This document shows, one piece after another, positions 10,551 through 43,812 of a stretch of DNA of 64,000 bases; position 1 is the first letter of the stretch, and each line of letters begins with the position of its first letter. The notes beneath the pieces are model-generated. The model was not told the origin of the DNA, did no database searches, and was given only the letters and a program-made list of their open reading frames with translations. Position numbers and translations under genes: made by a program. Source of the DNA: Mustelus asterias (lineage: Eukaryota); contig NC_135804.1 of NCBI RefSeq assembly GCF_964213995.1, positions 69,440,001-69,504,000 on the forward strand, in the 5' to 3' direction.

Positions 10551-12748
10551 TATTGCTGTTATTTTCGAGGAATCTCCCTCCCCCCCAATCCGCCCCCCCC
10601 CCCTCCCCCGACACACACGCCATTCCCCACCCCAACTCTCCCCACCCCCCACCCCGGCCAATCCCCGAAGAATGTCAGATACCATTTGAATAAGAATGTC
10701 TCCAAAATTACAGTAGATATAAATAACATTGCTCAACTAATAACCAATGGGTCATAGGGAACTTGGTTTTGCAATGTTCCCACCGTATCAATTTTGTGCT
10801 TGCTTATGGCTTTCTGGAAAATTATATTATCCTCCATATTTCAGCCACGGTCCTCACATTGTCACGTATATGGATGAAAACAAAATCTTGCCGGTGCTGG
10901 AAATATGAAATGAAAAGCACTAAATGCAGTATAAATTCATTGGGTCTGGCCAGGATCAGTGGAAAGATGCAGAGTTAGCGTCTCGGGTCTAAAAATCCCT
11001 TCTGCAGAATAGTTTTGTAGGATGCTGAGTTTATCCAGCATTTTCCATTTTCATGTCACTTATCCTTACATCCGTAATGCACTTTGAATGAATTGTAGAA
11101 ATATTAAGCATGCTCAATCCGTATAACCATTGTGCTTTTATGAAAGAGGAGTCTAATTTATTTTCTCAGGGCAGCTTGTTCCTATTCATTCTGCAAATGT
11201 AAACTCTTAAGACATGTCTTTACTGGAAATGTATACATCAACTGCTATTATCATTCTTTCAGGTGGATTTTGCCCACCGTCCACGACAGCATGGTTTTTC
11301 TCCTTTACTTTGTATTTGTTGACCATTTATTTTTGCTATATGACATTGGTTTACCTATCCGCTATCCGTGCAGGTTGTTGCACCACACTCCCGCCATTGG
11401 ACGTCTGCCTGTGTCTGTTATTAAATTTAACAGCCTCCTGATCTTATTTGCTCTAATTGCAAAAGCGGTGCTTCTCCAAACTCATCAAATCACTGCAGTC
11501 ACACATTTCCCTAAATCTCTGCTCTGCAACTCCGTCTGCTCTCATCCCTGCTAAACGTTGATGCCGATAATGGTACATATCAGCGCAGCAGAATAACAAC
11601 GCGTGATTTGTCAGCGCTTAACACGATTTCTTGTTTTTCTATTTATCATCATCTACAGTCTAGAAATCTCTGAGACATCCAAAAGCACCTTAAAGTCTTG
11701 CCAACAAAAGCTCTGGAAAATTCTCCCTCCGTTTATGGTGTGTGTTACCATTCCTGCGTTTGATTTGTGTTATCCTGCAGTCCGCAACTCTCCCTACCTT
11801 TGAGAACAAGTTAGCATCCCCAAAATTGAATCAGCAAAATTCCGACTTTCAAGTAAAACATTCATCATCATGCTGATGCCTTGGGGGTTCCAGTGCAGAG
11901 CACTCTCGTGTCGCATATAAAAACAATGGTGCTTCACCAATTTCTATCAGCCATGAATTAGCTGCTGATGTGAAAACGGAAATTCTTCGTCAGAATTTCA
12001 TCATGTGAGAAGAGGGTTTGCGCTGCTGTCAGACTATTAACGAGACGAGAGACCACGATTCACCGATACTGAAAGTAATGTCCTTGTATGGCGTCTCATG
12101 GGTATCGTCCACTTTCTTAAAATCAACTGTCATTCTCCTCACACTGACACATTTCAACTCTGCAAAAGGACGTTGTGGTTGGAGTATGCAGTAAAGTCAT
12201 TGCTAAATGGTAGAAGCCCATCTAGACCAAGATCGTGGAATTTTCTGTTTCCAGTTCTGTCGTTCCATTTCCCGGAATAACTTTCGAAAACACTGGTCCT
12301 TCATGGCCAATATTTTATCTGCATCAAATTACTTGTCATGGGAAAGAGCCCTGTTCCCTTGTCCATTGAAAATAACATTTGCTTGGAGAAGTTGCATCTG
12401 TTTGCTCCACAGCTGCAGTCCTCAATCAATACTTCCTCTTTAAATATTCTCGAATGCCATGAACAGTAGCTGTAATGTATTTCTATTCTATGGTTCATGA
12501 TTCCTTAGTCGACTTTTCTTCGGTCCAAGAAAGATCGACCATAGCTATTCAATGTTGACATTTATTTTCTTATGCTTATTACCTCGTGCAAAATAAAAGT
12601 GTTTCGGATTGGGGACAGTAGATTGAGATGAATAGAAAACTGGCTGGCGCACAGGAAACAAAGAGTTAGAATAAGCTGGTCTTTTTCCGAAAGTAAGAAG
12701 TTTAACAACACCAGGTTAAAGTCCAACAGGTTTATTTGTTAGTAAAAG

Positions 12749-12793
12749 CCACACAAGCTTTCGAAGCTCTAAGCCCCTTCTTCAGGTGAGTGG
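12749..12793 (-). ncRNA. Minimal type I hammerhead ribozyme motif in PLE pseudo-LTR
   Basis: Reverse complement is CCACUCAC-CUGAAGA-A-GGGGC-UUAGA-GCUUC-GAAA-GCUU-GUGUGG. Confidence 0.72.
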
Positions 12794-13698
12794 GAATTCT
12801 GTTCACAAACAGAGCTTATAAAGACACAGACTCAATTTACATGAATAATGGTTGGAATGCGAATACTTACAACTAATCAAGTCTTTAAGAAACAAAACAA
12901 TGGGAGTGGAGAGAGCATCAAGACAGGCTAAAAGGATGTGTATTGTCTCCAGACAAGACAGCCAGTGAAACTCTGCAGGTCTACGCAACTGTGGGAGTTA
13001 CAAATAGTGTGACATGAACCCAATATCCCGGTTGAGGCCGTCCTCGTGTGTGCGGAACTTGGCTATCAGTTTCTGCTCAGCGACTCTGCGCTGTTGTGTG
13101 TCGCGAAGGCCGCCTTGGAGAACGCTTACCCGAATATCAGAGGCCGAATGCCCGTGACCGCTGAAGTGCTCCCCAACAGGAAGAGAACAGTCTTGCCTGG
13201 TGATTGTCGAGCGGTGTTCATTCATCCGTTGTCGCAGCGTCTGCATAGTTTCCCCAATGTACCATGCCTGGGGACATCCTTTCTTGCAGCGTATCAGGTA
13301 GACAACGTTGGCCGAGTTGCAAGAGTATGTACCGTGTACCTGGTGGATGGTGTTCTCACGTGAGATGATGGCATCTGTGTCGATGTGTTCTCACGTGAGA
13401 TGATGGCATCTGTGTCGATGTATTGATAGCCAAGTTCCGCACACACGAGGACGGCCTCAACCGGGATATTGGGTTCATGTCACACTATTTGTAACTCCCA
13501 CAGTTGCGTGGACCTGCAGAGTTTCACTGGCTGTCTTGTCTGGAGACAATACACATCTTTTTAGCCTGTCTTGATGCTCTCTCCACTCCCATTGTTTTGT
13601 TTCTTAAAGACTTGATTAGTTGTAAGTATTCGCATTCCAACCATTATTCATGTAAATTGAGTCTGTGTCTTTATAAGCTCTGTTTGTGAACAGAATTC

Positions 13699-13743
13699 CC
13701 ACTCACCTGAAGAAGGGGCTTAGAGCTTCGAAAGCTTGTGTGG
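13699..13743 (+). ncRNA. Minimal type I hammerhead ribozyme motif in PLE pseudo-LTR
   Basis: CUGAAGA and GAAA cores, stem II GGGGC/GCUUC, palindromic AAGCUU stem III, stem I CAC/GUG. Confidence 0.72.
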
Positions 13744-14867
13744 CTTTTGCTACCAAATAAACCTGTTGGACTTTAACCTGGTGTTGTTAAACTTCTTACT
13801 GTGTTTACCCCAGTCCAACGCCGGCATCTCCACATCACTTTTTCCGAAAGGCAGGCATTGACTGGTGGAGTACAGCAGGGATCGCTTCTAGAAATTCAGG
13901 TGTTCACAATATATGGATGATTGAAATGATGGAACTAAATGCAATATCTCCAAATTTGCAGATGACACAAAACTGGGTGGGAGGGTGGGTTTTGATGGGG
14001 ATAAAAAGATTTGGAAAAATTGATAGAGTGGGCAGATGCATATGGATAAATGTGACATTCTCCACTTTGGCAGCAAAAGTTGGAAGGCAAAATATGATCT
14101 GAGTGGCTTTAGATTGAGAGGGGAATGTACAACGAAATCTGGCTGAAATTGTACATCAGTCATTCAAGATAAGCATGTATGTGCAGCAGGCGATAAATAA
14201 GACAATTTGCATTGTGGCCACCATAGAGAGAGGATGCGATTACAGAAGCAAGCATGTTTTGCTGTAAATATGCAGGGCTTTGGAGAGACAACGCCTGGAA
14301 TACTGTATTCAGTTTCTGTCGCATTATCTGAGGAAGGACGTTCTTGCTACAGAGTGAGTGCAGCGAATGTTTACCAGACATATCGCCGGAATGCAGGGAT
14401 TCACGAATGAGAAGAGATTTATTCGGATAAGAATTTATTCGCTGGAGTTCAAAATAATGAGCAGGAGGAATCTCATAGAAACATTGAAAATTCTAAAAGG
14501 ACTAGACAATATGGTAAATGAAGTGTGGTGTAATGTTGGGGAGCCCATCACCATGGGGAATAGTCTAAAGATACGGGGTAAACGTTTTAACACTGAGATG
14601 AGGAGATGTTTCTTCACCTCGAGAGCGGTAAGCCTCTGCAACTCACTACCAGAAAAAGCAGTTGAAGTCAAAAATATTGCACGATTTGAGGAAGGAGTTA
14701 TATATATGGATCTTGGGGCGAATGAGATCAAAGGATATGGGAGAAGGCCGGATCAGGTTACTGACTTGGATGATCTGCCATGCTCAGAATGAATGGAGAT
14801 AGAGGCTTGAAGTGCCGAATGACCTACTCCTATTCCTGTTATTTATGTATTCTATGCCTGTGTTTAT

Positions 14868-27725: not shown

Positions 27726-28644
27726 ACTGGTTCGTATAAGCCAGTTGGTACGAAAGTTCTCTTTGGGTGCGCTATATCCACGTCATCTGAAGCAATATGT
27801 GGTGCCATTTGACTTATATTTCCTCTCCATCTTTTTCCTCCTGCAGTGAATTGTGTGAGAAACTTAGGGCACAGAATTAATTTGAAAAGCCATAAGTGCA
27901 ATTCGGCAATGTTCAAAGCAAAACAGTTAAAACAATAATCAAAATGCAAAATTAGTCCAGATATAATTTTCTTGCTTTTCGAGTCCAATTACCGCCCATA
28001 TTATTCCATGCATTATTATCCCTTTTGTCACTTAACCATTCTTCCGTTCACTTTGTCGCAGAACCAATCATTTTTTGCTCTCATTCATTCCCTCCCTCCC
28101 ACAAAAGCCCCTGCTTTTACTTATCTTGCATGTTGCAATGCAAGACTATTACATTCATAATTTATTTCAGTTTTGCAGGCAATTAAGCTGAAATATTTTC
28201 ACAGTTTCGCCCTCCACTCGCCTAATAATTCGTTGCATATTTACGATACTTTCCCGCACTTTTTCAATTGCAGCTTGAAAGATTTTTAAAGTTTATTTAC
28301 TAGTGTGACAAGTAGGCTTACATAAATACTGCAATGAAGTCACTGAGAAACCGCTTCCCCCCCCCCCCCCCCCCCCCCGCCATCGCCCCCCACCCTCAGA
28401 GTTTGTCAGTTTAATTGCAAATGTTACGAAAAGCTGAGGATTGGCCATTTGGAAAATGCCTCCGAATATTGAACGGCATTGAGCAATAGGTGGCTTTAAT
28501 GTCCAGTGGGAAAAGAGTGGAAATTGTGCCATTATTAATATAAACTAGATATTACAAAAGTAGAGTGCAGAATAGCACAAGGTGCAATGATGAGATCGGC
28601 ATGTTTTAAATTCTTTGTTGTTCTGGACCACTGTGCGATATGTA

Positions 28645-31503
28645 ACTGAACAAAACGTCAACAAAAAGAAGATTGTCATCGACTTCAGGAAGTGTAAAGG
28701 AGAACATTCCCCATGTCCATCAACGGGGATGAAGTAGACAGGGCAGAAAGCTTCAAGTTTTTAGGTGTCCAGATCACCAACAACATGTCCTGGTCCCCCC
28801 ATGCCGACACTATAGTTCAGAAAGCCCACCAACGCCTCTACTTTCTCAGTAGACCAGGAAATTTGGCATGTTAGCTACAACTCTCACCAACTTTTAGAGA
28901 CGCAACATGGGAAGCATTCTTTCTGGCTGTATCACAGCTTAGTATGGTTGCTGCTCTGCCTAAGACAGCATGGAACTACAAAAGGTCGTGAATGTAGCCC
29001 AATCCATCACGCAAACCAGCATCCCATCCATTGACTCTGCCTACGCTTCCCACTGCCTCGGCAAAGCAGCCAGCATAATTAAGGACACCACGAACCCTGG
29101 ACATTCTATCATCCACCTTCTTCCTTCGGGAAAAAGACACAAAGGTCTGAGGTCAAGTACCAACCGACTCAAGAAGAGTTCCTTCCCTGCTGCTGTCAAA
29201 CCTTTGAATGGACTTACCCTGCATTGAGTTGGTCATTCTCCGCACCCGAACTATGACTGTAACACTACATTCTGCACTTTCTCGTTTCCTTCTCTATGAA
29301 CGGTATGCTTTGTCTGTATAGCGTGCAAGAAACAATACTTTTCACTGTATAGAAACATGGAAACATAGAAAACGACAGCACAAAACAGGCCCTTCGGCCC
29401 CACAAGTTGTGCCGGACATATCCCTACCTTTTAGGCCTACCTATAACCCTCCATCCTATTAAGTCCCATGTACTCATCCAGGAGTCTCTTAAAATACCCT
29501 ATTGAGTTTGCCTCCACCACCACTGACGGCAGCCGATTCCACTCGCCCACCACCCTCTGTGTGAAAAACTTCCACCGAACATTTCCCCTGTATCTACCCC
29601 CCAGCACGTTAAACCTGTGTCCTCTCGTAGCAGCCATTCCCACCCTGGGAAAACGCCTCTGAGAGTCCACTCGATCTATGCCTCTCAACATCTTATATAC
29701 CTCTATTAGGTCTCCTCTCATCGTACGTCTCTCCAAGGAGAAAAGACCGAGCTCCCTCAGCCTATCCTCATAAGGCATGCCACTCAATCCAGGCAACGTC
29801 CTTGTAAATCTCCTCTGCACCCTTTCAATCTTTTCCACATCCTTAATGAGGCGACCAGAACTGAGCACAGTACTCCAAGTGGGGTCTGACGAGGGCCTTA
29901 TATAGCTGCATCATTATCCCCGGACTCCTAAACTCAATCCCTTGATTGATAAAGGCCAGCACACCATACGCCTTCTTAACCACCTCCTCCACCTGCGGTG
30001 CCGATTTTACAGTCCTATGGACCCGGACCCCGAGGTCCTTCTGATCCTTTACCGTACCAAGAGTCTTTCCCTTTATATTGTACTCCTTCATCCCATTCGA
30101 CCTGCCAAAATGGACCACTACGCATTTATCTGGGTTGAAGTCCATCTGCCACTTCTCCGCCCAGTCTTGCAGCCTATCTATGTCCCACTGTAACGTCTGA
30201 CATCCCACCAGACTATCCACAACCCCAGCAACCTTCTTGTCGTCGGCAAATTTACCAACCCATCCCTACACTTCCTCTTCCAGGTCATTTATGAAAATGA
30301 CAAACAGCGAGGGTACCAGAACAGATCCCGAGGGCACACCACTGCTGACCGACCTCCATTTTTAAAAGTACCCATCTATACACACTCTCTGCCTCCTTTG
30401 GGCAAGCCAGTTCTGGATCCACAGGGCAGCCGCCCCTTGGATCCCATGCCCTCTCACTTTTTCGAGAAGCCTTGCTTGGGGGACCTTATCGAATGCCTTG
30501 CTAAAATCCATAGAAACCACGTCTACCGATTTCCCTTCGTCAATGTGTTTTGTCACATTTTCAAAGAACTCCACCAGACTCGTAAGGCACGATTTGCCTT
30601 TGACAAAGCCATGCTGAATATTCTTGAGCATACTAAACCTCTCTAAATGCTCATAAATGTTGTCCCTCAGGATCTTCTCCATCAGCTTACCAACCACTGA
30701 GGTTAGACTCACCGGTCGGTAATTTCCTGGGTTACCCCTATTCCCCGTCTTGAAAATAGGAACCACATCCGCAATCCTCCAATCCTCCGGCACCTCTCCC
30801 GTCGCCATCAACGACGCAAAGATCATTGCCAGAGGCTCTGCAATCTCTTCCCTCGCCTCCCACTAGTAACCTGGGGTACATCCCATCCGGACCCAGCGAC
30901 TTATCTATCTTGATGCCATTCAAAGATTCCAGCACAACCTCTTTGTTAAAGTCCACATACTCAATCTTTTCAGTCCACCGCAAGCCCACAGTCCGTCCAC
31001 CCATGTCCTTCTCCTCTGTGAAAACCGAGGCAAAATACTCATTAAGCACCTCTGCCATTCTACTGATTCCGTACAGATTTTCCCGCCTTCACCTTTTATA
31101 GGCCCTATTCCTTCACGTCTCATCCTTTTACTCATCACATATTTATAGAACGCCTTCGGGTTTTCCTTAATTCTACTTGCCAAGGCCTTCTCGTGACCCC
31201 TTCTGGCTCTCCTAATTTCCTTCTTTAGTCCCTTTCTACAAACCGTATACTCATCTAGATCCCTATCTTCGCCAAGCTCTCTGAACCCTTTGTACGTTTT
31301 CCTTTTCTTCTCGACTAGGTCCCGCACAGCTTTCGTGCACCACGGTTCCTTTAACCTACCAACTCCTCCCTGTCTGCTCGGAACATTGTCCTGTAGAACC
31401 CTAGACAGACATTCCTTGAAAAACTGCCACCTCTCTTCAGTAGATTTCCCCGAGTATACCATTTATGTTAATACACGTGACACTAACAAATCAAATCAAA
31501 TCA
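28645..31503 (+). mobile_element. Rex1/Babar-like LINE 3' portion (28645-29350) whose tail resumes at 31460-31503
   Basis: IVIDFRK..SFKFLGVQITNNMSW..KAHQRLYFL; the 3'UTR cactgtat|gttaatac is split by a CR1; (aaatc)n tail. Confidence 0.75.
29349..31458 (-). mobile_element. CR1 LINE, 5'-truncated and frameshifted, inserted in the Rex-like tail
   Basis: Successive ORF2 fragments 30920-31462, 30362-30826, 29843-30220 and 29437-29868; (ctatgttt)-type tail. Confidence 0.92.
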
Positions 31504-31944
31504 AAAAGAAGGTTCCTTTCATTACTGGACAAAATTCATTGCCCATTATCTCAGTTTTAGCCTGTTTCAAGTGCAAATATCTTCACCCAAGTGGGGGTCA
31601 TAGAGGGAATTGGTCTTTCTCACGTGGAAGGAGAAACTTTGGAGTTTGATATGCTCGGTGAAGATTCGCGTTCTTGTTCTCAAAATAGTGAATGCTGGAG
31701 AAAAAGGAAGGGACAAGAGTGGCATTTTTACTATTTGTAACTCCCACAGTTGCGTGGACCTGCAGAGTTTCACTGGCTGTCTCGTCTGGAGACAATACAC
31801 ATCTTTTTAGCCTGTCTTGATGCTCTCTCCACTCCCATTGTTTTGTTTCTTAAAGACTGGATTCGTTGTAAGTATTCGCATTCCAACCATTATTCATGTA
31901 AATTGAGTCTGTGTCTTTATAAGTTCTGTTTGTGAACAGAATTC

Positions 31945-31989
31945 CCACTCACCTGAAGAAGGGGCTCAGAGCCTCGAAAGCTTGTGTGG
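31945..31989 (+). ncRNA. Hammerhead ribozyme motif, array pseudo-LTR 1
   Basis: CCACUCAC-CUGAAGA-A-GGGGC-UCAGA-GCCUC-GAAA-GCUU^GUGUGG. Confidence 0.75.
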
Positions 31990-32082
31990 CTTTTGCTACC
32001 AAATACACCTGTTGGACTTTAACCTGGTGTTGTTAAACTTCTTACTGTGTTTACCCCAGTCCAACGCCGGCATCTCCACATC

Positions 32083-34731
32083 ATGACTACCATCGACACC
32101 GCAAACTGCCGGCTCCAAGTGGAGAGGATCGCCAAGAAGATCGCGCATATCGACACAGACATCAAGTTTCTACAAAGATGCAAGAAAGCAGACAAGATAC
32201 CGAAAGGACTACAGATCACGAACCCACTCAGGTCAACCTATAACACAGACTTTGCCGTCGCACCTCTCTCACCCTCCTCAACCACCTCATACACCAACTC
32301 TACAGCAAACGCCGCAGCCTGGAAACCAAGATCGAATCCATATTCTCAACTTGCGCTCAGGACGCAGACCAGCTGCGAAACTCTGCCAAGCAGACGAGAC
32401 AAAGGAACTACACCATCTACATGCACACCAAGAACAGGAAACTTGAGAAACTCGGCATCACCACCAGCAGCAACCAAGCCTCCCCCGGTACCACAGTAGA
32501 AAACAGTACCACTGCAGGGAAGTCCATTGTCAACTTGTCCGACTACACACTTCAACCAGATGAAATCGAAGTTCTCAGCCGAGGGCTTAATTTTTGCCCC
32601 ACCACCAAAATAGACCCCATCAGTCTCGCAGCAGACACAGAGGAATTCATCAGGCGAATGAGGCTGAGGGAGTTCTTCCACAAACCCCAAGAGGCCAACA
32701 ACGAACACAATGAGACAGCCAATGAACCGGAACAGCCGACAGAGAGATCCGCAGTGCATCCGAAGAGGAAAGAGTCGAATTGGACTCCTCCGGAAGGCCG
32801 CTGCCCTCGACTTGACATGTATGCCCAAGCCGTCAGGAGGTGCGTCAACACCAAATTCATCAGCCGCACTCACAAGACAGCCCCGAACATCACCCAAGCA
32901 CAACGTAACGCCATCCACGCTCTCAAGACCAACCGCAACATTGTCATCAAACCAGCAGACAAAGGAGGGGCCATCGTCATACTGAACAGAACGGATTACT
33001 GCAAAGAAGTGAACCGACAACTCAACAACGAGGAACACTACAGACAGTTACCTGCAGATCTGACCAAAGAACACACCCGTCAACTCAACACTCTGATCAA
33101 GACCTTTGATCTGGACCTTCAGAACACCCTCCGTGCTCTCATCCCACGTACTCCCCGCGTTGGAGATCTCTACTGCCTCCCGAAGATACACAAGGCAAAC
33201 ACACCCGGCCGTCCCATCGTATCGGGCAATGGGACCCTGTGCGAGAACCTCTCCGGCTATGTCGAGGGCATCCTGAAACCCATTGTACAAAGAACCCCCA
33301 GCTTTTGTCGCGACACGACGGACTTCCTACAGAAACTCGGCACACATGGAGCAGTTGAACCAGGAGCGCTCCTCGTCACAATGGATGTCTCAGCACTCTA
33401 CACCAGCATCCCCCATGACGATGGCATTGCTGCAACGGCCTCAGTGCTCAGCGCCAACAACTGCCAGTTTCCAGATGCAATTTTACATCTCATCCGCTTC
33501 ATCCTGGACCACAATATCTTCACCTTCAACAACCAGTTCTTCATCCAGACACATGGAACAGCCATGGGGACCAAATTTGCACCTCAATATGCCAACATCT
33601 TCATGCACAGGTTCGAACAAGACTTCTTCACCGCACGGGACCTTCAACCGATGCTATACACTAGATACATCGATTACATTTTCTTCCTTTGGACTCATGG
33701 TGAACAATCACTGAAACAACTCTATGATGACATCAACAAGTTCCATCCCACCATCAGGCTCACCATAGACTACTCTCCGGAATCGGTTGCATTCTTGGAC
33801 ACGCGCATCTCCATTAAGGACGGTCACCTCAGCACCTCACTGTACCGCAAGCCCACGGATAACCTCACGATGCTCCACTTCTCCAGCTTCCACCCTAAAC
33901 ACGTTAAAGAAGCCATCCCCTACACACAGGATCTGCTCGGATGAGGAGGATCGCAACAGACACCTCCAGACGCTGAAAGATGCCCTCATAAGAACAGGAT
34001 ATGGCGCTAGACTCATTGATCAACAGTTCCAACGCGCCACTGCGAAAAACCGCACCGACCTCCTCAGAAGACAAACACGGGACACAGTGGACAGAGTACC
34101 CTTCGTTGTCCAGTACTTCCCCGGAGCGGAGAAGCTACAGCATCTCCTCCGGAGCCTTCAACATGTCATTGATGAAGACGAACATCTCGCCAAGGCCATC
34201 CCCACACCCCCACTTCTTGCCTTCAAACAACCGCACAACCTCAAACAGACCATTGTCCGCAGCAAACTACCCAGCCTTCAGGAGAACAGTGACCAAGACA
34301 CCACACAACCCTGCCACAGCAACCTCTGCAAGACGTGCCGGATCATCGACACAGATGCCATCATCTCACGTGAGAACACCATCCACCAGGTACACGGTAC
34401 ATACTCTTGCAACTCGGCCAACGTTGTCTACCTGATACGCTGCAAGAAAGGATGTCCCGAGGCATGGTACATTGGGGAAACTATGCAGACGCTGCGACAA
34501 CGGATGAATGAACACCGCTCGACAATCACCAGGCAAGACTGTTCTCTTCCTGTTGGGGAGCACTTCAGCGGTCACGGGCATTCGGACTCTGATATTCGGG
34601 TAAGCGTTCTCCAAGGCGGCCTTCGCGACACACGGCAGCGCAGAGTCGCTGAGCAGAAACTGATAGCCAAGTTCCGCACACACAAGGACGGCCTCAACCG
34701 GGATATTGGGTTTATGTCACACTATTTGTAA
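32083..34731 (+). pseudogene. PLE unit 1 ORF (RT plus GIY-YIG), two frameshifts, YIDY
   Basis: ATG at 32083; frameshift near 32251; 17-bp deletion at 33923/33924; the catalytic codon at 33675-33677 is TAC. Confidence 0.9.
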
Positions 34732-34935
34732 CTCCCACAGTTGCGTGGACCTGCAGAGTTTCACTGGCTGTCTTGTCTGGAGACAATACACATCTTTTTA
34801 GCCTGTCTTGATGCTCTCTCCACTCCCATTGTTTTGTTTCTTAAAGACAGGCTTAGTTGTAAGTATTCGCATTCCAACCATTATTCATGTAAATTGAGTC
34901 TGTGTCTTTATAAGTTCTGTTTGTGAACAGAATTC

Positions 34936-34980
34936 CCACTCACCTGAAGAAGGGGCTCAGAGCCTCGAAAGCTTGTGTGG
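34936..34980 (+). ncRNA. Hammerhead ribozyme motif, array pseudo-LTR 2
   Basis: Identical to 31945-31989. Confidence 0.75.
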
Positions 34981-35073
34981 CTTTTGCTCCCAAATCAACC
35001 TGTTGGACTTTAACCTGGTGTTGTTAAACTTCTTACTGTGTTTACCCCAGTCCAACGCCGGCATCTCCACATC

Positions 35074-37722
35074 ATGACTACCATCGACACCGCAAACTGC
35101 CGGCTCCAAGTGGAGAGGATCGCCAAGAAGATCGCGCATATCGACACAGACATCAAGTTTCTACAAAGATGCAAGAAAGCAGACAAGATACCGAAAGGAC
35201 TACAGATCACGAACCCACTCAGGTCAACCTATAACACAGACTTTGCCGTCGCACCTCTCTCACCCTCCTCAACCACCTCATACACCAACTCTACAGCAAA
35301 CGCCGCAGCCTGGAAACCAAGATCGAATCCATATTCTCAACTTGCGCTCAGGACGCAGACCAGCTGCGAAACTCTGCCAAGCAGAGGAGACAAAGGAACT
35401 ACACCATCTACATGCACACCAAGAACAGGAAACTTGAGAAACTCGGCATCACCACCAGCAGCAACCAAGCCTCCCCCGGTACCACAGTAGAAAACAGTAC
35501 CACTGCAGGGAAGTCCATTGTCAACTTGTCCGACTACACACTTCAACCAGATGAAATCGAAGTTCTCAGCCGAGGGCTTAATTTTTGCCCCACCACCAAA
35601 ATAGACCCCATCAGTCTCGCAGCAGACACAGAGGAATTCATCAGGCGAATGAGGCTGAGGGAGTTCTTCCACAAACCCCAAGAGGCCAACAACGAACACA
35701 ATGAGACAGCCAATGAACCGGAACAGCCGACAGAGAGATCCGCAGTGCATCCGAAGAGGAAAGAGTCGAATTGGACTCCTCCGGAAGGCCGCTGCCCTCG
35801 ACTTGACATGTATGCCCAAGCCGTCAGGAGGTGCGTCAACACCAAATTCATCAGCCGCACTCACAAGACAGCCCCGAACATCACCCAAGCACAACGTAAC
35901 GCCATCCACGCTCTCAAGACCAACCGCAACATTGTCATCAAACCAGCAGACAAAGGAGGGGCCATCGTCATACTGAACAGAACGGATTACTGCAAAGAAG
36001 TGTACCGACAACTCAACAACGAGGAACACTACAGACAGTTACCTGCAGATCTGACCAAAGAACACACCCGTCAACTCAACACTCTGATCAAGACCTTTGA
36101 TCTGGACCTTCAGAACACCCTCCGTGCTCTCATCCCACGTACTCCCCGCGTTGGAGATCTCTACTGCCTCCCGAAGATACACAAGGCAAACACACCCGGC
36201 CGTCCCATCGTATCGGGCAATGGGACCCTGTGCGAGAACCTCTCCGGCTATGTCGAGGGCATCCTGAAACCCATTGTACAAAGAACCCCCAGCTTTTGTC
36301 GCGACACGACGGACTTCCTACAGAAACTCGGCACACATGGAGCAGTTGAACCAGGAGCGCTCCTCGTCACAATGGATGTCTCAGCACTCTACACCAGCAT
36401 CCCCCATGACGATGGCATTGCTGCAACGGCCTCAGTGCTCAGCGCCAACAACTGCCAGTTTCCAGATGCAATTTTACATCTCATCCGCTTCATCCTGGAC
36501 CACAATATCTTCACCTTCAACAACCAGTTCTTCATCCAGACACATGGAACAGCCATGGGGACCAAATTTGCACCTCAATATGCCAACATCTTCATGCACA
36601 GGTTCGAACAAGACTTCTTCACCGCACGGGACCTTCAACCGATGCTATACACTAGATACATCGATTACATTTTCTTCCTTTGGACTCATGGTGAACAATC
36701 ACTGAAACAACTCTATGATGACATCAACAAGTTCCATCCCACCATCAGGCTCACCATAGACTACTCTCCGGAATCGGTTGCATTCTTGGACACGCGCATC
36801 TCCATTAAGGACGGTCACCTCAGCACCTCACTGTACCGCAAGCCCACGGATAACCTCACGATGCTCCACTTCTCCAGCTTCCACCCTAAACACGTTAAAG
36901 AAGCCATCCCCTACACACAGGATCTGCTCGGATGAGGAGGATCGCAACAGACACCTCCAGACGCTGAAAGATGCCCTCATAAGAACAGGATATGGCGCTA
37001 GACTCATTGATCAACAGTTCCAACGCGCCACTGCGAAAAACCGCACCGACCTCCTCAGAAGACAAACACGGGACACAGTGGACAGAGTACCCTTCGTTGT
37101 CCAGTACTTCCCCGGAGCGGAGAAGCTACAGCATCTCCTCCGGAGCGTTCAACATGTCATTGATGAAGACGAACAGCTCGCCAAGGCCATCCCCACACCC
37201 CCACTTCTTGCCTTCAAACAACCGCACAACCTCAAACAGACCATTGTCCGCAGCAAACTACCCAGCCTTCAGGAGAACAGTGACCAAGACACCACACAAC
37301 CCTGCCACAGCAACCTCTGCAAGACGTGCCGGATCATCGACACAGATGCCATCATCTCACGTGAGAACACCATCCACCAGGTACACGGTACATACTCTTG
37401 CAACTCGGCCAACGTTGTCTACCTGATACGCTGCAAGAAAGGATGTCCCGAGGCATGGTACATTGGGGAAACTATGCAGACGCTGCGACAACGGATGAAT
37501 GAACACCGCTCGACAATCACCAGGCAAGACTGTTCTCTTCCTGTTGGGGAGCACTTCAGCGGTCACGGGCATTCGGACTCTGATATTCGGGTAAGCGTTC
37601 TCCAAGGCGGCCTTCGCGACACACGGCAGCGCAGAGTCGCTGAGCAGAAACTGATAGCCAAGTTCCGCACACACAAGGACGGCCTCAACCGGGATATTGG
37701 GTTTATGTCACACTATTTGTAA
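35074..37722 (+). pseudogene. PLE unit 2 ORF, same lesions as unit 1
   Basis: Same 5' frameshift, same 17-bp deletion (36914/36915) and YIDY (36666-36668). Confidence 0.9.
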
Positions 37723-37926
37723 CTCCCACAGTTGCGTGGACCTGCAGAGTTTCACTGGCTGTCTTGTCTGGAGACAATACACATCTTTTTAGCCTGTCTT
37801 GATGCTCTCTCCACTCCCATTGTTTTGTTTCTTAAAGACAGGCTTAGTTGTAAGTATTCGCATTCCAACCATTATTCATGTAAATTGAGTCTGTGTCTTT
37901 ATAAGTTCTGTTTGTGAACAGAATTC

Positions 37927-37971
37927 CCACTCACCTGAAGAAGGGGCTCAGAGCCTCGAAAGCTTGTGTGG
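37927..37971 (+). ncRNA. Hammerhead ribozyme motif, array pseudo-LTR 3
   Basis: Identical to 31945-31989. Confidence 0.75.
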
Positions 37972-38402
37972 CTTTTGCTACCAAATAAACCTGTTGGACT
38001 TTAACCTGGTGTTGTTAAACTTCTTACTGTGTTTACCCCAGTCCAACGCCGGCATCTCCACATCATGACTACCATCGACACCGCAAACTGCCGGCTCCAA
38101 GTGGAGAGGATCGCCAAGAAGATCGCGCATATCGACACAGACATCAAGTTTCTACAAAGATGCAAGAAAGCAGACAAGATACCGAAAGGACTACAGATCA
38201 CGAACCCACTCAGGTCAACCTATAACACAGACTTTGCCGTCGCACCTCTCTCACCCTCCTCAACCACCTCATACACCAACTCTACAGCAAACGCCGCAGC
38301 CTGGAAACCAAGATCGAATCCATATTCTCAACTTGCGCTCAGGACGCAGACCAGCTGCGAAACTCTGCCAAGCAGACGAGACAAAGGAACTACACCATCT
38401 AC

Positions 38403-40730
38403 ATGCACACCAAGAACAGGAAACTTGAGAAACTCGGCATCACCACCAGCAGCAACCAAGCCTCCCCCGGTACCACAGTAGAAAACAGTACCACTGCAGG
38501 GAAGTCCATTGTCAACTTGTCCGACTACACACTTCAACCAGATGAAATCGAAGTTCTCAGCCGAGGGCTTAATTTTTGCCCCACCACCAAAATAGACCCC
38601 ATCAGTCTCGCAGCAGACACAGAGGAATTCATCAGGCGAATGAGGCTGAGGGAGTTCTTCCACAAACCCCAAGAGGCCAACAACGAACACAATGAGACAG
38701 CCAATGAACCGGAACAGCCGACAGAGAGATCCGCAGTGCATCCGAAGAGGAAAGAGTCGAATTGGACTCCTCCGGAAGGCCGCTGCCCTCGACTTGACAT
38801 GTATGCCCAAGCCGTCAGGAGGTGCGTCAACACCAAATTCATCAGCCGCACTCACAAGACAGCCCCGAACATCACCCAAGCACAACGTAACGCCATCCAC
38901 GCTCTCAAGACCAACCGCAACATTGTCATCAAACCAGCAGACAAAGGAGGGGCCATCGTCATACTGAACAGAACGGATTACTGCAAAGAAGTGTACCGAC
39001 AACTCAACAACGAGGAACACTACAGACAGTTACCTGCAGATCTGACCAAAGAACACACCCGTCAACTCAACACTCTGATCAAGACCTTTGATCTGGACCT
39101 TCAGAACACCCTCCGTGCTCTCATCCCACGTACTCCCCGCGTTGGAGATCTCTACTGCCTCCCGAAGATACACAAGGCAAACACACCCGGCCGTCCCATC
39201 GTATCGGGCAATGGGACCATGTGCGAGAACCTCTCCGGCTATGTCGAGGGCATCCTGAAACCCATTGTACAAAGAACCCCCAGCTTTTGTCGCGACACGA
39301 CGGACTTCCTACAGAAACTCGGCACACATGGAGCAGTTGAACCAGGAGCGCTCCTCGTCACAATGGATGTCTCAGCACTCTACACCAGCATCCCCCATGA
39401 CGATGGCATTGCTGCAACGGCCTCAGTGCTCAGCGCCAACAACTGCCAGTTTCCAGATGCAATTTTACATCTCATCCGCTTCATCCTGGACCACAATATC
39501 TTCACCTTCAACAACCAGTTCTTCATCCAGACACATGGAACAGCCATGGGGACCAAATTTGCACCTCAATATGCCAACATCTTCATGCACAGGTTCGAAC
39601 AAGACTTCTTCACCGCACGGGACCTTCAACCGATGCTATACACTAGATACATCGATTACATTTTCTTCCTTTGGACTCATGGTGAACAATCACTGAAACA
39701 ACTCTATGATGACATCAACAAGTTCCATCCCACCATCAGGCTCACCATAGACTACTCTCCGGAATCGGTTGCATTCTTGGACACGCGCATCTCCATTAAG
39801 GACGGTCACCTCAGCACCTCACTGTACCGCAGGCCCACGGATAACCTCGCGATGCTCCACTTCTCCAGCTTCCACCCTAAACATGTTAAAGAAGCCATCC
39901 CCTACGCACAAGCCCTCCGTATACACAGGATCTGCTCGGATGAGGAGGATCGCAACAGACACCTCCAGACGCTGAAAGATGCCCTCATAAGAACAGGATA
40001 TGGCGCTAGACTCATTGATCAACAGTTCCAATGCGCCACTGCGAAAAACCGCACCGACCTCCTCAGAAGACAAACACGGGACACAGTGGACAGAGTACCC
40101 TTCGTTGTCCAGTACTTCCCCGGAGCGGAGAAGCTACGGCATCTCCTCCGGAGCCTTCAACATGTCATTGATGAAGACGAACATCTCGCCAAGGCCATCC
40201 CCACACCCCCACTTCTTGCCTTCAAACAACCGCACAACCTCAAACAGACCATTGTCCGCAGCAAACTACCCAGCCTTCAGGAGAACAGTGACCAAGACAC
40301 CACACAACCCTGCCACAGCAACCTCTGCAAGACGTGCCGGATCATCGACACAGATGCCATCATCTCACGTGAGAACACCATCCACCAGGTACACGGTACA
40401 TACTCTTGCAACTCGGCAAACGTTGTCTACCTGATACGCTGCAAGCAAGGATGTCCCGAGGCATGGTACATTGGGGAAACTATGCAGACGCTGCGACAAC
40501 GGATGAATGAACACCGCTCGACAATCACCAGGCAAGACTGTTCTCTTCCTGTTGGGGAGCACTTCAGCGGTCACGGGCATTCGGACTCTGATATTCGGGT
40601 AAGCGTTCTCCAAGGCGGCCTTCGCGACACACGGCAGCGCAGAGTCGCTGAGCAGAAACTGATAGCCAAGTTCCGCACACACAAGGACGGCCTCAACCGG
40701 GATATTGGGTTTATGTCACACTATTTGTAA
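38403..40730 (+). CDS. PLE unit 3: 775-aa open RT plus GIY-YIG frame; native start probably 38065 but frameshifted, RT motif C reads YIDY
   Basis: Continuous ORF that retains the 17 bp (39906-39922) missing from units 1 and 2; TAC at 39657-39659. Confidence 0.85.
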   Translation: MHTKNRKLEKLGITTSSNQASPGTTVENSTTAGKSIVNLSDYTLQPDEIEVLSRGLNFCPTTKIDPISLAADTEEFIRRMRLREFFHKPQEANNEHNETANEPEQPTERSAVHPKRKESNWTPPEGRCPRLDMYAQAVRRCVNTKFISRTHKTAPNITQAQRNAIHALKTNRNIVIKPADKGGAIVILNRTDYCKEVYRQLNNEEHYRQLPADLTKEHTRQLNTLIKTFDLDLQNTLRALIPRTPRVGDLYCLPKIHKANTPGRPIVSGNGTMCENLSGYVEGILKPIVQRTPSFCRDTTDFLQKLGTHGAVEPGALLVTMDVSALYTSIPHDDGIAATASVLSANNCQFPDAILHLIRFILDHNIFTFNNQFFIQTHGTAMGTKFAPQYANIFMHRFEQDFFTARDLQPMLYTRYIDYIFFLWTHGEQSLKQLYDDINKFHPTIRLTIDYSPESVAFLDTRISIKDGHLSTSLYRRPTDNLAMLHFSSFHPKHVKEAIPYAQALRIHRICSDEEDRNRHLQTLKDALIRTGYGARLIDQQFQCATAKNRTDLLRRQTRDTVDRVPFVVQYFPGAEKLRHLLRSLQHVIDEDEHLAKAIPTPPLLAFKQPHNLKQTIVRSKLPSLQENSDQDTTQPCHSNLCKTCRIIDTDAIISRENTIHQVHGTYSCNSANVVYLIRCKQGCPEAWYIGETMQTLRQRMNEHRSTITRQDCSLPVGEHFSGHGHSDSDIRVSVLQGGLRDTRQRRVAEQKLIAKFRTHKDGLNRDIGFMSHYL

Positions 40731-40934
40731 CTCCCACAGTTGCGTGGACCTGCAGAGTTTCACTGGCTGTCTTGTCTGGAGACAATACACATCTTTTTAG
40801 CCTGTCTTGATGCTCTCTCCACTCCCATTGTTTTGTTTCTTAAAGACAGGATTAGTTGTAAGTATTCGCATTCCAACCATTATTCATGTAAATTGAGTCT
40901 GTGTCTTTATAAGTTCTGTTTGTGAACAGAATTC

Positions 40935-40979
40935 CCACTCACCTGAAGAAGGGGCTCAGAGCCTCGAAAGCTTGTGTGG
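40935..40979 (+). ncRNA. Hammerhead ribozyme motif, array pseudo-LTR 4
   Basis: Identical to 31945-31989. Confidence 0.75.
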
Positions 40980-41084
40980 CTTTTGCTACCAAATAAACCT
41001 GTTGGACTTTAACCTGGTGTTGTTAAACTTCTTACTATTTTTCTCTTCAAGCAGGGAGGGGCCTTGTGCAACACATCATGGAGA

Positions 41085-43812
41085 AGAACCTAGAACAATC
41101 ATCATCACGAGGGAATAAGTATTGAGCAAGCTATGAGGATTGAAGGCAGGTCTCCAGAGCCTGATGGTCCACATCGTCGGGTCTTAATGGAATTGGCAGC
41201 AAGTTGCAACAGTGGATCTATTGGCTATAACATTCCAAATGTCATTGGAGGCGGAAAAGGTTTCAGTCGAATGGAAAAAGTGCTAATAGAATGCCTTTGT
41301 TCAAAGAACGAGGCAGACAGAAAATAGCAAACTATAGACCAGTTAGTTTAAAATGTGTCGTTGGCAAATTGTTAGGATCGATTATTAACGAAGTAGTAAC
41401 CGGAAATTTGTAAAATCAAATCGCAATCCATCAGGGTCGGCAAGGTTTTATGAAAGGGAAAACATGTTTGACTAATTGGATGGAGATCTTCGAAGACATA
41501 CCAACAAAACCGATAATGGGGATTCAGTGGATGTAGCAAATCTGGACTTCCGGAAGACATTTACTAAAGTTCAGCACACAAAAGGTTAATACAAAAGGTA
41601 AGATTACATGGGATTTGGGGCAAATTATTAGCTCTGGTAGAAGACTGGCGAAACAACAGATAGCATGATTCTGGATAAATGGGTCTTTTTCACGACGGCA
41701 CCATGTAACTTGTGCCTTTCCACAGGGTTCAGTCCTCCACCCACAACTATGTACACATCTTATTAATATTTTGGATGCCGGGCTAGAAGTTTCTATTGCT
41801 ACATTTGCAGATGCCACAAAATTAGATGGGATAGTAAGTTGCAATGGGCAGCACAGTGGCAGAGTGGTTAGCACTGCTGCCTCAAAGCGCCAAGGACCCG
41901 GGTTCAATTGAACTCGGGTCACAGTCTGTGAGGAGTTTGCACGTTCTTCCCGTGTCTGTGTGGGTTTCCTCCAGGTACTCCGGTTTCATCCCAAACTCCA
42001 AAGTTGTGCAGGAGAGGTTGATTGGTCGTGGTAAATTGACTCTGAGAGTTAGGGTGACGAGCAAGGTAAGTAGAGAGTGTTAAGGGGATGGCGCCTGAGT
42101 GGGATTGTCGTCAGTGCAGACTTGATGGGCCAAATAGTCTCCTTCTGCACTGTCGCAATTCTATGATTGCAGTGAGGCAATACGAAATTTACAAATGGAT
42201 ATAGATAGAATATCACAATGCGCCAAAATTTGGCAGTTGGTTATTCACGTAGCTCAGTGTGAGGTTATCAATGTTTGCCAGAAAAATAGAAAGAGAACTT
42301 ATTCTTTGCAAACAGAGAGAAAATTCAGAGTGCTTTGGTACAGAGCTATCCAGATGTCCTCGGACACGAATTGCAGGAAACAATTATGCAGGTACAGCAA
42401 GTAACAAGGAAAACAAATAGCATTTTGGCGTTTGTGGCCGAAGGAAAATAATGCAAATGTCGGGACCTACTGCGGCAACTGTACAATGAAATAATGAAGC
42501 TGCGCTTGGAGTATTGTGTACTCTGTGAACCCATTTGTTCGGGAGGGATGTCGTTGCATTGCAGAAATGTCAGAGCATGTTCACTAAATTGATTCCATTG
42601 ATGACGGGGTTGTCTTATGAAGAGAGGTTGAGCAGTTTAGGTCTATCTTCTCGAGAAATAGAATATTGAGCACAGTTCTATTTATGGTATATAAGATGAT
42701 AAACAGATTTGTCAGGGCAGACATAGACAGAAGCTTTCCAGATGATTGTAAATTTACATAGAAACAGAAAAATAGAAAATAGAAACAGGAGTCGGCCATT
42801 CGGCCCTTCAAGCCTGCTCCGCTATTCAGGTTGACCATGTCTGACTTTCAAAATCAATATCCTGATCCCGTGTTCCACCCAGATCCCTCGATCCCTTTAA
42901 CCCCAAGAGTAATATCTAATTTCTTCCTGAAATCTTTTGGCCTCAATTACATTTCCGTGGTCGTGAATTCCACAGATTCACCACTCTCTAAGTGAAGAAA
43001 TGTCTGCTCACCTCAGTCTTAAAAGTTTACCCCTTATCCTCAAACTCTGGCCCCTGGTTCTGGACTCCCCCACCATCTGAAACACTCTTTCTGGATCTAC
43101 CCTCTCTAATCTTGTTAGATTTTTACAAGTTTCTATGAGATCCCGACCCACTCTTCTGAACTCCACTGAATACAATCCTAATTGACTTAGTCTCTTCTTA
43201 TATGCCATCCCAGGAATCACCCTGGTAAACCTTCACTGCACTCCCTCTATTGCAGTCAGATCATTCGTCAGATAAGGACACCAAAACTGTATACAGTATT
43301 CTCGGTGTGGCCTGACCGACGGCCTGTACAATTACAGTACAGTATCCCTATTCCTATTCTCAAATCCTCTTACTATGGAGGCCCAACATACAATTTGCCT
43401 TCCTCACTGCCTGCTGTACCTGCGGGCTTACTTTCAGCAACTGATGCACGAGGACACCAAGGCTTACTGAATATCCACCTCTCTCAATTTATACCCATTC
43501 AAATAATAATTTGCCTTCCTATTTTTGCTACCGAAATGGACAACCTGACATCCATTTAAAAGGAGATGAGGAGAAATTACTTGTCCCAAAGGGTCGTGAA
43601 TCTATGAAATTCACTGCTGAAGATTGCAGTGGATACCAGGATATTAAGTACGTTTAATTAGGAGATAGAAAGGTGTTTCACTCGTAATGGAATGACGGGT
43701 TGTGGAGAATGGGCAGGGAAATCGTGTTGCGGCCGAGGTCAAATCAACCATTATCGTACTGAATGGCGGAGCTGGCTGTGGTGAATTGCTGTTCCGAGTT
43801 GTTATGTTCTTA
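41085..43812 (+). mobile_element. Old CR1 with a V-SINE (41846-42168, +) and an inverted CR1 fragment (42757-43555, -) nested in it
   Basis: Decayed RT motifs (LDFRKTF, PQGSVL, TFADATK). The SINE has A and B boxes. The plus-strand CR1 end resumes at 43555. Confidence 0.72.

Follow-up and report, generated by a model that had tools for sequence, protein, structure and literature searches.

Nested mutations in a three-unit array of a reverse transcriptase-dead Penelope-like element: one insertion perhaps enlarged by stepwise duplication

Introduction

How do three full-length copies of a retroelement, each with the same lesion in its reverse transcriptase (RT), come to lie head to tail inside one insertion? 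The question is posed by a stretch of 64,000 nucleotides of the Mustelus asterias genome (assembly GCF_964213995.1, contig NC_135804.1, positions 69,440,001 to 69,504,000, forward strand), referred to here as the window and numbered from its first letter, in which a sequence-only reading had recognized a triple array of Penelope-like elements (PLEs) and proposed that a circular or multimeric RNA of the dead element had been copied in trans by a helper RT, with tandem duplication at the DNA level as the alternative. Tandem arrays of LTR elements can arise by unequal exchange between their terminal repeats, which leaves n bodies, n + 1 repeats and one target duplication. Tandem PLEs, pseudo-LTR hammerheads about 3 kb apart and a circle model are already in print: passages of PMC4209133 place minimal hammerheads ~3 kb apart in PLEs and propose circles as templates for more-than-unit copies, PMC11167929 draws three tandem PLE repeats, multicopy head-to-tail insertions of non-autonomous PLEs are mentioned in part of PMC8557442, mobilisation in trans is shown in a portion of PMC3846280, and a section of PMC2377424 sees no obvious mechanism for regenerating the pseudo-LTR besides the tendency to form tandems. 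The use of private mutations to tell copies of one template (a star) from successive duplications (a ladder) within full-length PLE multimers was not found in the literature searched, which consisted mostly of non-subscription articles in their main texts.

Results

A threefold array of a Penelope-like element within one target duplication

Four 317-nt direct repeats, starting at 31730, 34721, 37712 and 40720 and spaced by 2991, 2991 and 3008 nt, have three bodies between them (Table 1), and their positions bear out, in the assembly sequence, the three ~3-kb head-to-tail units and four pseudo-LTRs described earlier. The array has exact ends (31730 and 41036) and is enclosed as a whole by one 6-bp duplication, ATTTTT, as judged against an inverted paralogue of the flanks (window 27870-41660) that lies ~1.28 Mb away on the same contig (L169, C4:68.19 Mb; 88-95% identity) and carries the empty site, with one copy of ATTTTT and no array. 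A 9-bp target duplication was ruled out, since the empty paralogue gives 6 bp. Also in the window (12692-13837) is a truncated fold-back insertion of the same family; it has a target duplication, a one-sided tail and, where it turns, a stutter of 35 nt.

Domain searches place RVT_1 (E 1.9e-7) and GIY-YIG (E 5e-5) in the unit 3 frame, and this order of RT and C-terminal GIY-YIG in a single ORF is that of EN+ PLEs; the pseudo-LTR derived from a tandem layout, the optional 30-40-nt tail and inverted copies are also present, as is, in translation, a C-x4-C-xx-C linker of the CX2-5CxxC form before GIY-YIG, which passages of PMC8557442 describe as absent from Penelope and Poseidon. A sequence search of the PDB gave 0 matches. 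The RT, linker, GIY-YIG domain and pseudo-LTRs confirm the earlier call of a Penelope-like element, which by its motifs is classed as Neptune/Nematis-type, a clade assigned from motifs alone under the definitions given in parts of PMC8557442. The EN+ Neptune and Nematis elements described there share with it the single ORF with DKG, RT, CX2-5CxxC and C-terminal GIY-YIG, the tandem-derived pseudo-LTRs, an optional tail of ~37 nt, nearby fold-back copies and a pLTR hammerhead, whereas the array differs from that description in having three full units rather than a partial tandem, in being dead throughout and in having no inverted arm.

All three unit ORFs read RYIDYIFF where the family has RYIDDIFF (changed base at 33675, 36666 and 39657), and all three are frameshifted 168 nt 3' of the ATG by a 13-nt deletion that lies between 5-nt direct repeats. 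The combination of YIDY with a frameshift about 170 nt past the ATG, and with it a dead RT, had been claimed for every unit and holds in every unit; none of them is able to transpose by itself. Units 1 and 2, unlike unit 3, are frameshifted again by the loss of 17 nt after 33923 and 36914, which accounts for the spacing of 2991 as against 3008 nt, and the joint of this deletion has 2 matches genome-wide, in units 1 and 2.

Table 1. Features of the array in window coordinates.
Feature	Position	Strand	Remarks
5' TSD copy ATTTTT, 6 bp	31724..31729	+	single copy at paralogous empty site L169
Pseudo-LTR 1	31730..32046	+	family T at LTR position 129 (31858)
Minimal type I hammerhead motif 1	31944..31989	+	predicted cut after 31983
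Unit 1 body: tail, ATG at 32083	32047..34720	+	
Unit 1 lesions		+	13-nt deletion near 32251; YIDY 33675; 17-nt deletion after 33923
Pseudo-LTR 2 with hammerhead 2	34721..35037	+	alleles 129A, 132C, 269C, 276C
Unit 2 body	35038..37711	+	both deletions as in unit 1, and YIDY (36666)
Pseudo-LTR 3 with hammerhead 3	37712..38028	+	alleles 129A, 132C
Unit 3 body	38029..40719	+	13-nt deletion near 38233; without 17-nt deletion; 8 private substitutions
Unit 3 open frame, 834 aa	38226-40730	+	DKG, RT (RVT_1, YIDY at 39657), C-x4-C-xx-C linker, GIY-YIG endonuclease
Pseudo-LTR 4 with hammerhead 4	40720..41036	+	129A; stops at LTR position 317
3' TSD copy ATTTTT	41037..41042	+	empty-site paralogue L169

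Hammerheads and the 3' end

The four pseudo-LTRs carry the same 55-nt hammerhead stretch without a single difference, with cuts predicted after 31983, 34974, 37965 and 40973 (LTR position 254/255), in agreement with the earlier description of one identical motif per period. It has the CUGANGA and GAAA core, an extra base before G10.1-C11.1, a palindromic stem III stub, an NUH site and a short stem I, and it fits, as had been proposed, the minimal type I motif of PLEs as parts of PMC4209133 portray it, with an extra base between 9 and 10.1, the G10.1-C11.1 pair and a palindromic 15.2-16.2. Among 264 segments, inspected by eye, variants of the motif retain the core; changes in stems I and II compensate each other, and the cut-site base is A, C or U. 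Single-strand folding (z 0.13) gave no stable monomer fold of the hammerhead, as is expected of a dimer-dependent motif, and Rfam returned no hammerhead match for the array motif; minimal hammerheads have low activity even in dimers according to a section of PMC4209133. The hammerheads would be passengers of the pseudo-LTR, and self-cleavage of an array transcript is a prediction.

The position of the array's 3' end, 63 nt past the last cut, had been read as a special clue to its template. This did not survive comparison with the family: in the fetched loci, young LTR segments have two preferred ends, at ~317 and ~355, and LTR position 317, where the array stops, is the first common 3' end, so that an end 63 nt beyond the cut is the family norm. 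In the anole PLE PAc, RT has two internal start sites, a tail apart, on uncleaved RNA, insertion was normal for mutants of the hammerhead, and none of the RNA ends coincided with the cut (PMC11167929). PAc resembles the array family in its tandem layout, in two 3' ends a tail apart, in an AT-rich target with ATT and in a 3' end downstream of the hammerhead cut; it differs in being a Poseidon element that has no CxxC linker and whose RT starts inside the ORF (PMC11167929), whereas the two common 3' ends of the array family fall at or before the ATG.

An abundant family with intact members

The YIDD 30-mer has 5527 exact matches in the 3.68-Gb genome and its YIDY form 73, while the intact 5' junction has 432 and the ORF start 408; among the first 100 of these 408, the array is the only set spaced by ~3 kb. 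We fetched 69 other YIDY loci, 11 YIDD loci picked partly for close spacing and, the C1 pair apart, the first 60 near-full-length loci listed. One 10-kb layout recurs four times (L073/L074 on C20, L087/L088 on C744 and C968), either by segmental duplication or as uncollapsed assembly haplotypes, and L074, L087 and L088, as copies of L073, were left out of the 78-segment comparison below and of later analyses.

Among the 60 near-full-length loci sampled, 16 keep intact the 892-893-aa YIDD ORF from the same ATG, a count that leaves out three ORFs starting elsewhere and the long ORF of L123, which lacks RYID. Potential helpers therefore exist, as the earlier proposal requires. No second full unit was present at any of the 60, and 18 of them combine a full unit with an upstream fragment (mean 388 nt, n = 18); among 17 young loci that have a full unit, a script scored 16 in which an upstream ORF fragment continues past the LTR on the same strand.

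Recurrence of YIDY and the search for the dead haplotype

YIDY arises by G>T and has 73 matches. Two control changes are rarer, with 11 matches for G>T at an adjacent G and 4 for G>C at the YIDY base itself, and since the YIDY change makes the RT motif a short direct repeat, a templated hotspot is likely. Carried by ~1.3% of copies, YIDY occurs in young and old ones (10 and 58 segments, respectively) and sits on long, separate tips of a 117-row tree built with the CpG columns masked; on this scatter, an RT-dead YIDY lineage was rejected. Both inverted arms of one insertion carry YIDY at L078 (C22:61.09 Mb) and again at L049 (C8:126.2 Mb), so the change can be there at landing; the arms of L078 have 5 rare alleles in common and differ at 3 of 1270 bases, and an RT-dead template was possibly moved in trans there.

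The same YIDY-plus-frameshift haplotype at other flanks, which a mobile dead template might have left, did not turn up in the genome search: a 67-nt 3' stretch with two of its private alleles has 3 matches genome-wide, all in the array units, and no second locus was found. The 13-nt junction has 4 matches genome-wide (three here and one on C7) against 432 for the intact form. The C7 locus (L021, C7:46.43 Mb) is the only other one with both the 13-nt deletion and YIDY, at 92-95% identity to unit 3; it shares 0 of the array's other six private ORF substitutions, and of the 38 subfamily-diagnostic sites that it covers, 33 show the older allele or a third base, whereas unit 3 carries young alleles at 42 of 43. 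On these grounds L021 was rejected as a sister insertion, and its two lesions, to judge from the alleles around them, are apparently an independent recurrence, a coincidence given that YIDY is found in only ~1.3% of copies.

A ladder in the array, a star elsewhere

With changes polarised against 78 young segments from 45 loci, units 1, 2 and 3 have in common 7 ORF substitutions and the 13-nt deletion, and 4 of the 7 alter the protein, as in a dead copy, with a small n. Within this shared set, LTR2-4 have A at LTR position 129, where LTR1 has the family T and where A occurs in 1 of 239 fetched LTR segments, and units 1 and 2 only share the 17-nt deletion, 2427A and LTR 132C. Private changes number 8 in unit 3, one of which falls in the stretch deleted from units 1 and 2, 3 in unit 1, 3 in unit 2 and 3 in LTR1 (31783, 31864 and 32006), and the 17-nt deletion is the sole indel between units. 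The array units are nested, as in a ladder, and do not form the star, with LTRs identical 5' of the cut, that marks a single template. One pass round one circle would not give this pattern, since the 17-nt deletion is in units 1 and 2 only and LTR1 differs at position 129. The three LTR1 changes are 4.6 times likelier at the age of the whole insertion than at that of the unit 3 split (Poisson 0.149 versus 0.032).

Comparison of match lists brought out two further dimers in the family. The one on C1 (G000:C1:47,985,9xx-47,995,5xx; L090, L161+L162) is a 1.87-unit head-to-tail dimer with two open YIDD frames and a full inverted arm, and its target duplication encloses the insertion. A set of 6 rare alleles (6-7 locus-private) recurs in unit A, in unit B and in the inverted arm, whose private changes number 6, 2 and 4, respectively, and no allele is common to just two parts where all three overlap; a two-allele haplotype of this dimer was found in a genome search only at its own locus. 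The pattern is that of a star, which shows that nearly two units were reverse-transcribed from one template in one event, and the earlier supposition that more than a unit can be reverse-transcribed in this family finds its support here. The second full dimer, on C4 (G000:C4:67,602,6xx-67,609,6xx; L165+L166), is older, with 69 differences per 3008 and a short inverted arm.

How far the sequence can be trusted

A total of 11 substitutions occur only in LTR1, unit 1 or unit 2; 2 of them are transitions, compared with 253 of 394 family singletons (P 0.002, post hoc), and 6 are A>C or T>G changes, compared with 31 of 394 (P 8e-5, with the grouping chosen post hoc); among the unit 3 private changes, 4 of 8 are transitions. 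The LTR1, unit 1 and unit 2 differences may be consensus errors or the product of local error-prone synthesis, and the former possibility weakens both the clock argument and the LTR1 count: if the 11 differences are errors, units 1 and 2 are identical and their duplication is very recent or false. Suspicion falls less on the 17-nt deletion, on the changes of unit 3 and on 129A, which three LTRs have. No strand bias of A>C changes, as a signature of RT error, was seen in the family (A>C 16 versus T>G 15), and a fixed two-base difference between the upstream and downstream LTRs of young copies was rejected as an artefact of gap placement. In Logan contigs from four runs, compared at 100% likeness with 32110-35100 and 39790-39970, the depth of the family swamps the locus; none of the pieces listed has both adjacent unit 3 alleles or the 17-nt joint, and gaps in this coverage are uninformative.

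Discussion

We give about an even chance to the reading that the array is one dead insertion, later enlarged from one unit to three by stepwise tandem duplication of DNA. It would have started in the family's usual form, namely 317 nt of an upstream unit, a full unit and a 3' pseudo-LTR, inserted by a helper or by itself with RT primed internally at LTR position 317, and the 13-nt deletion, YIDY and six further ORF changes would have been on the template or have arisen in the single unit. Unequal exchange between the two pseudo-LTRs, which offer only 317 bp of homology, would yield a dimer with an internal LTR of the 3' type and an unchanged LTR1; the 5' unit would next lose its 17 nt and then be doubled, either by another exchange or through an assembly error. 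Stepwise duplication is favoured because it yields the nested pattern without an extra event. Its first duplication depends largely on one base, LTR 129, and the eight shared private changes and the uniqueness of the haplotype fit an RT origin as well. As in tandems of LTR elements, the outer 5' repeat is distinct and n bodies accompany n + 1 repeats; unlike those tandems, the array has pseudo-LTRs as its repeats and belongs to a family that also makes tandems by RT.

Possible, if on the unlikely side, is a two-unit product made by a helper RT in one event from an RT-dead template, by way of a circle, of a multimeric read-through RNA or of an RT that jumps back to the RNA it is copying, with one unit later duplicated in the DNA or by the assembler. 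The C1 dimer leaves room for such an origin by showing more-than-unit RT, and its star, with 6-7 shared private alleles, bears a load like the array's 8; since this RT-made dimer is also unique to its locus, uniqueness of the haplotype alone is not decisive. The same-strand upstream ORF fragments (16/17 young loci with a full unit), YIDY in both arms of L078 and L049 and the intact helpers (16/60) point the same way, and unequal exchange proceeds more readily in a 3-kb dimer than through a repeat of 317 bp. Against this stand the extra event needed at LTR 129 (a reversion, a conversion or RT changing between a cleaved and an uncleaved RNA template), the need for a dead source, which is absent from the assembly, and the lack of a YIDY lineage in the 117-row tree. 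What stands of the original proposal of a circular or multimeric dead RNA copied by a helper is therefore the helpers and the more-than-unit RT, whereas a trimer made in one pass is not supported, given the nested changes. On a broader and still doubtful view, which we put forward tentatively, the full-length PLE multimers here might be fossils of more-than-unit RT of one RNA unit, C1 being one and the array having grown from another, made in trans from a dead template.

An assembly artefact strikes us as improbable. The true locus would then hold one unit, and two alleles, one of them with the 17-nt deletion, would have been joined via the pseudo-LTR, with consensus errors added. The error-like spectrum of the LTR1, unit 1 and unit 2 differences, a bias absent from the family, agrees with this, and joining of alleles via the LTR predicts the same LTR pattern as unequal exchange. 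However, many fold-back insertions of this family, 3-6 kb long and with arms 0-1 bases apart, are resolved in the assembly, so that a 3.3-kb monomer should be spanned; moreover, there is no inter-unit indel noise besides the 17-nt deletion, and the C1 and C4 dimers look biological.

That a helper RT made all three units by going round a hammerhead-cut and circularised RT-dead RNA in a single rolling-circle pass, as in the model proposed for PLEs in parts of PMC4209133, is very unlikely despite the one target duplication round the array, the identical hammerheads once per period, the shared lesions and the covarying hammerhead stems across family variants, for the 17-nt deletion and two substitutions of units 1 and 2 are absent from unit 3, LTR position 129 is 5' of the cut and must match in all rounds whereas LTR1 differs, two more full rounds come out at 1e-7 to 2e-4 in an exponential fit of lengths that understates the tail (a weak argument, since C1 and C4 sit in that tail), and the anole PLE did not need cleavage to insert, with no RNA ends at the cut (PMC11167929). 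The array's nested mutations are thus unlike one pass round the circle of that PMC4209133 model, and the array is a poor witness for it, since at least one later step is recorded in its mutations.

The non-LTR retrozymes described in part of 10.64898/2026.07.22.740005 resemble the array in their tandem units with one type I hammerhead each, in being non-autonomous and in their derivation from PLEs; as presented there they are short, non-coding, dispersed repeats (period limit 1000), whereas the array has a 3-kb coding unit and a haplotype at one locus. Dispersed copies of the same non-autonomous unit, expected of a retrozyme or rolling-circle product, were not found for the array in the genome search, although the RT-made C1 dimer is unique as well.

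C1 is the best witness seen for more-than-unit RT and a better lead than the array, and the useful result is a method with its control: private alleles within an insertion separate RT-made multimers (C1, a star) from later duplications (the array, a ladder), as applied here to a family whose young copies run into the thousands and some of whose members are intact. Its youngest subfamily (L106, L112, L116, L120-L122, L135, L144 and L155), marked by a 77-nt insertion at the ORF end, has 0-3 private changes per unit and intact ORFs and is probably active now.
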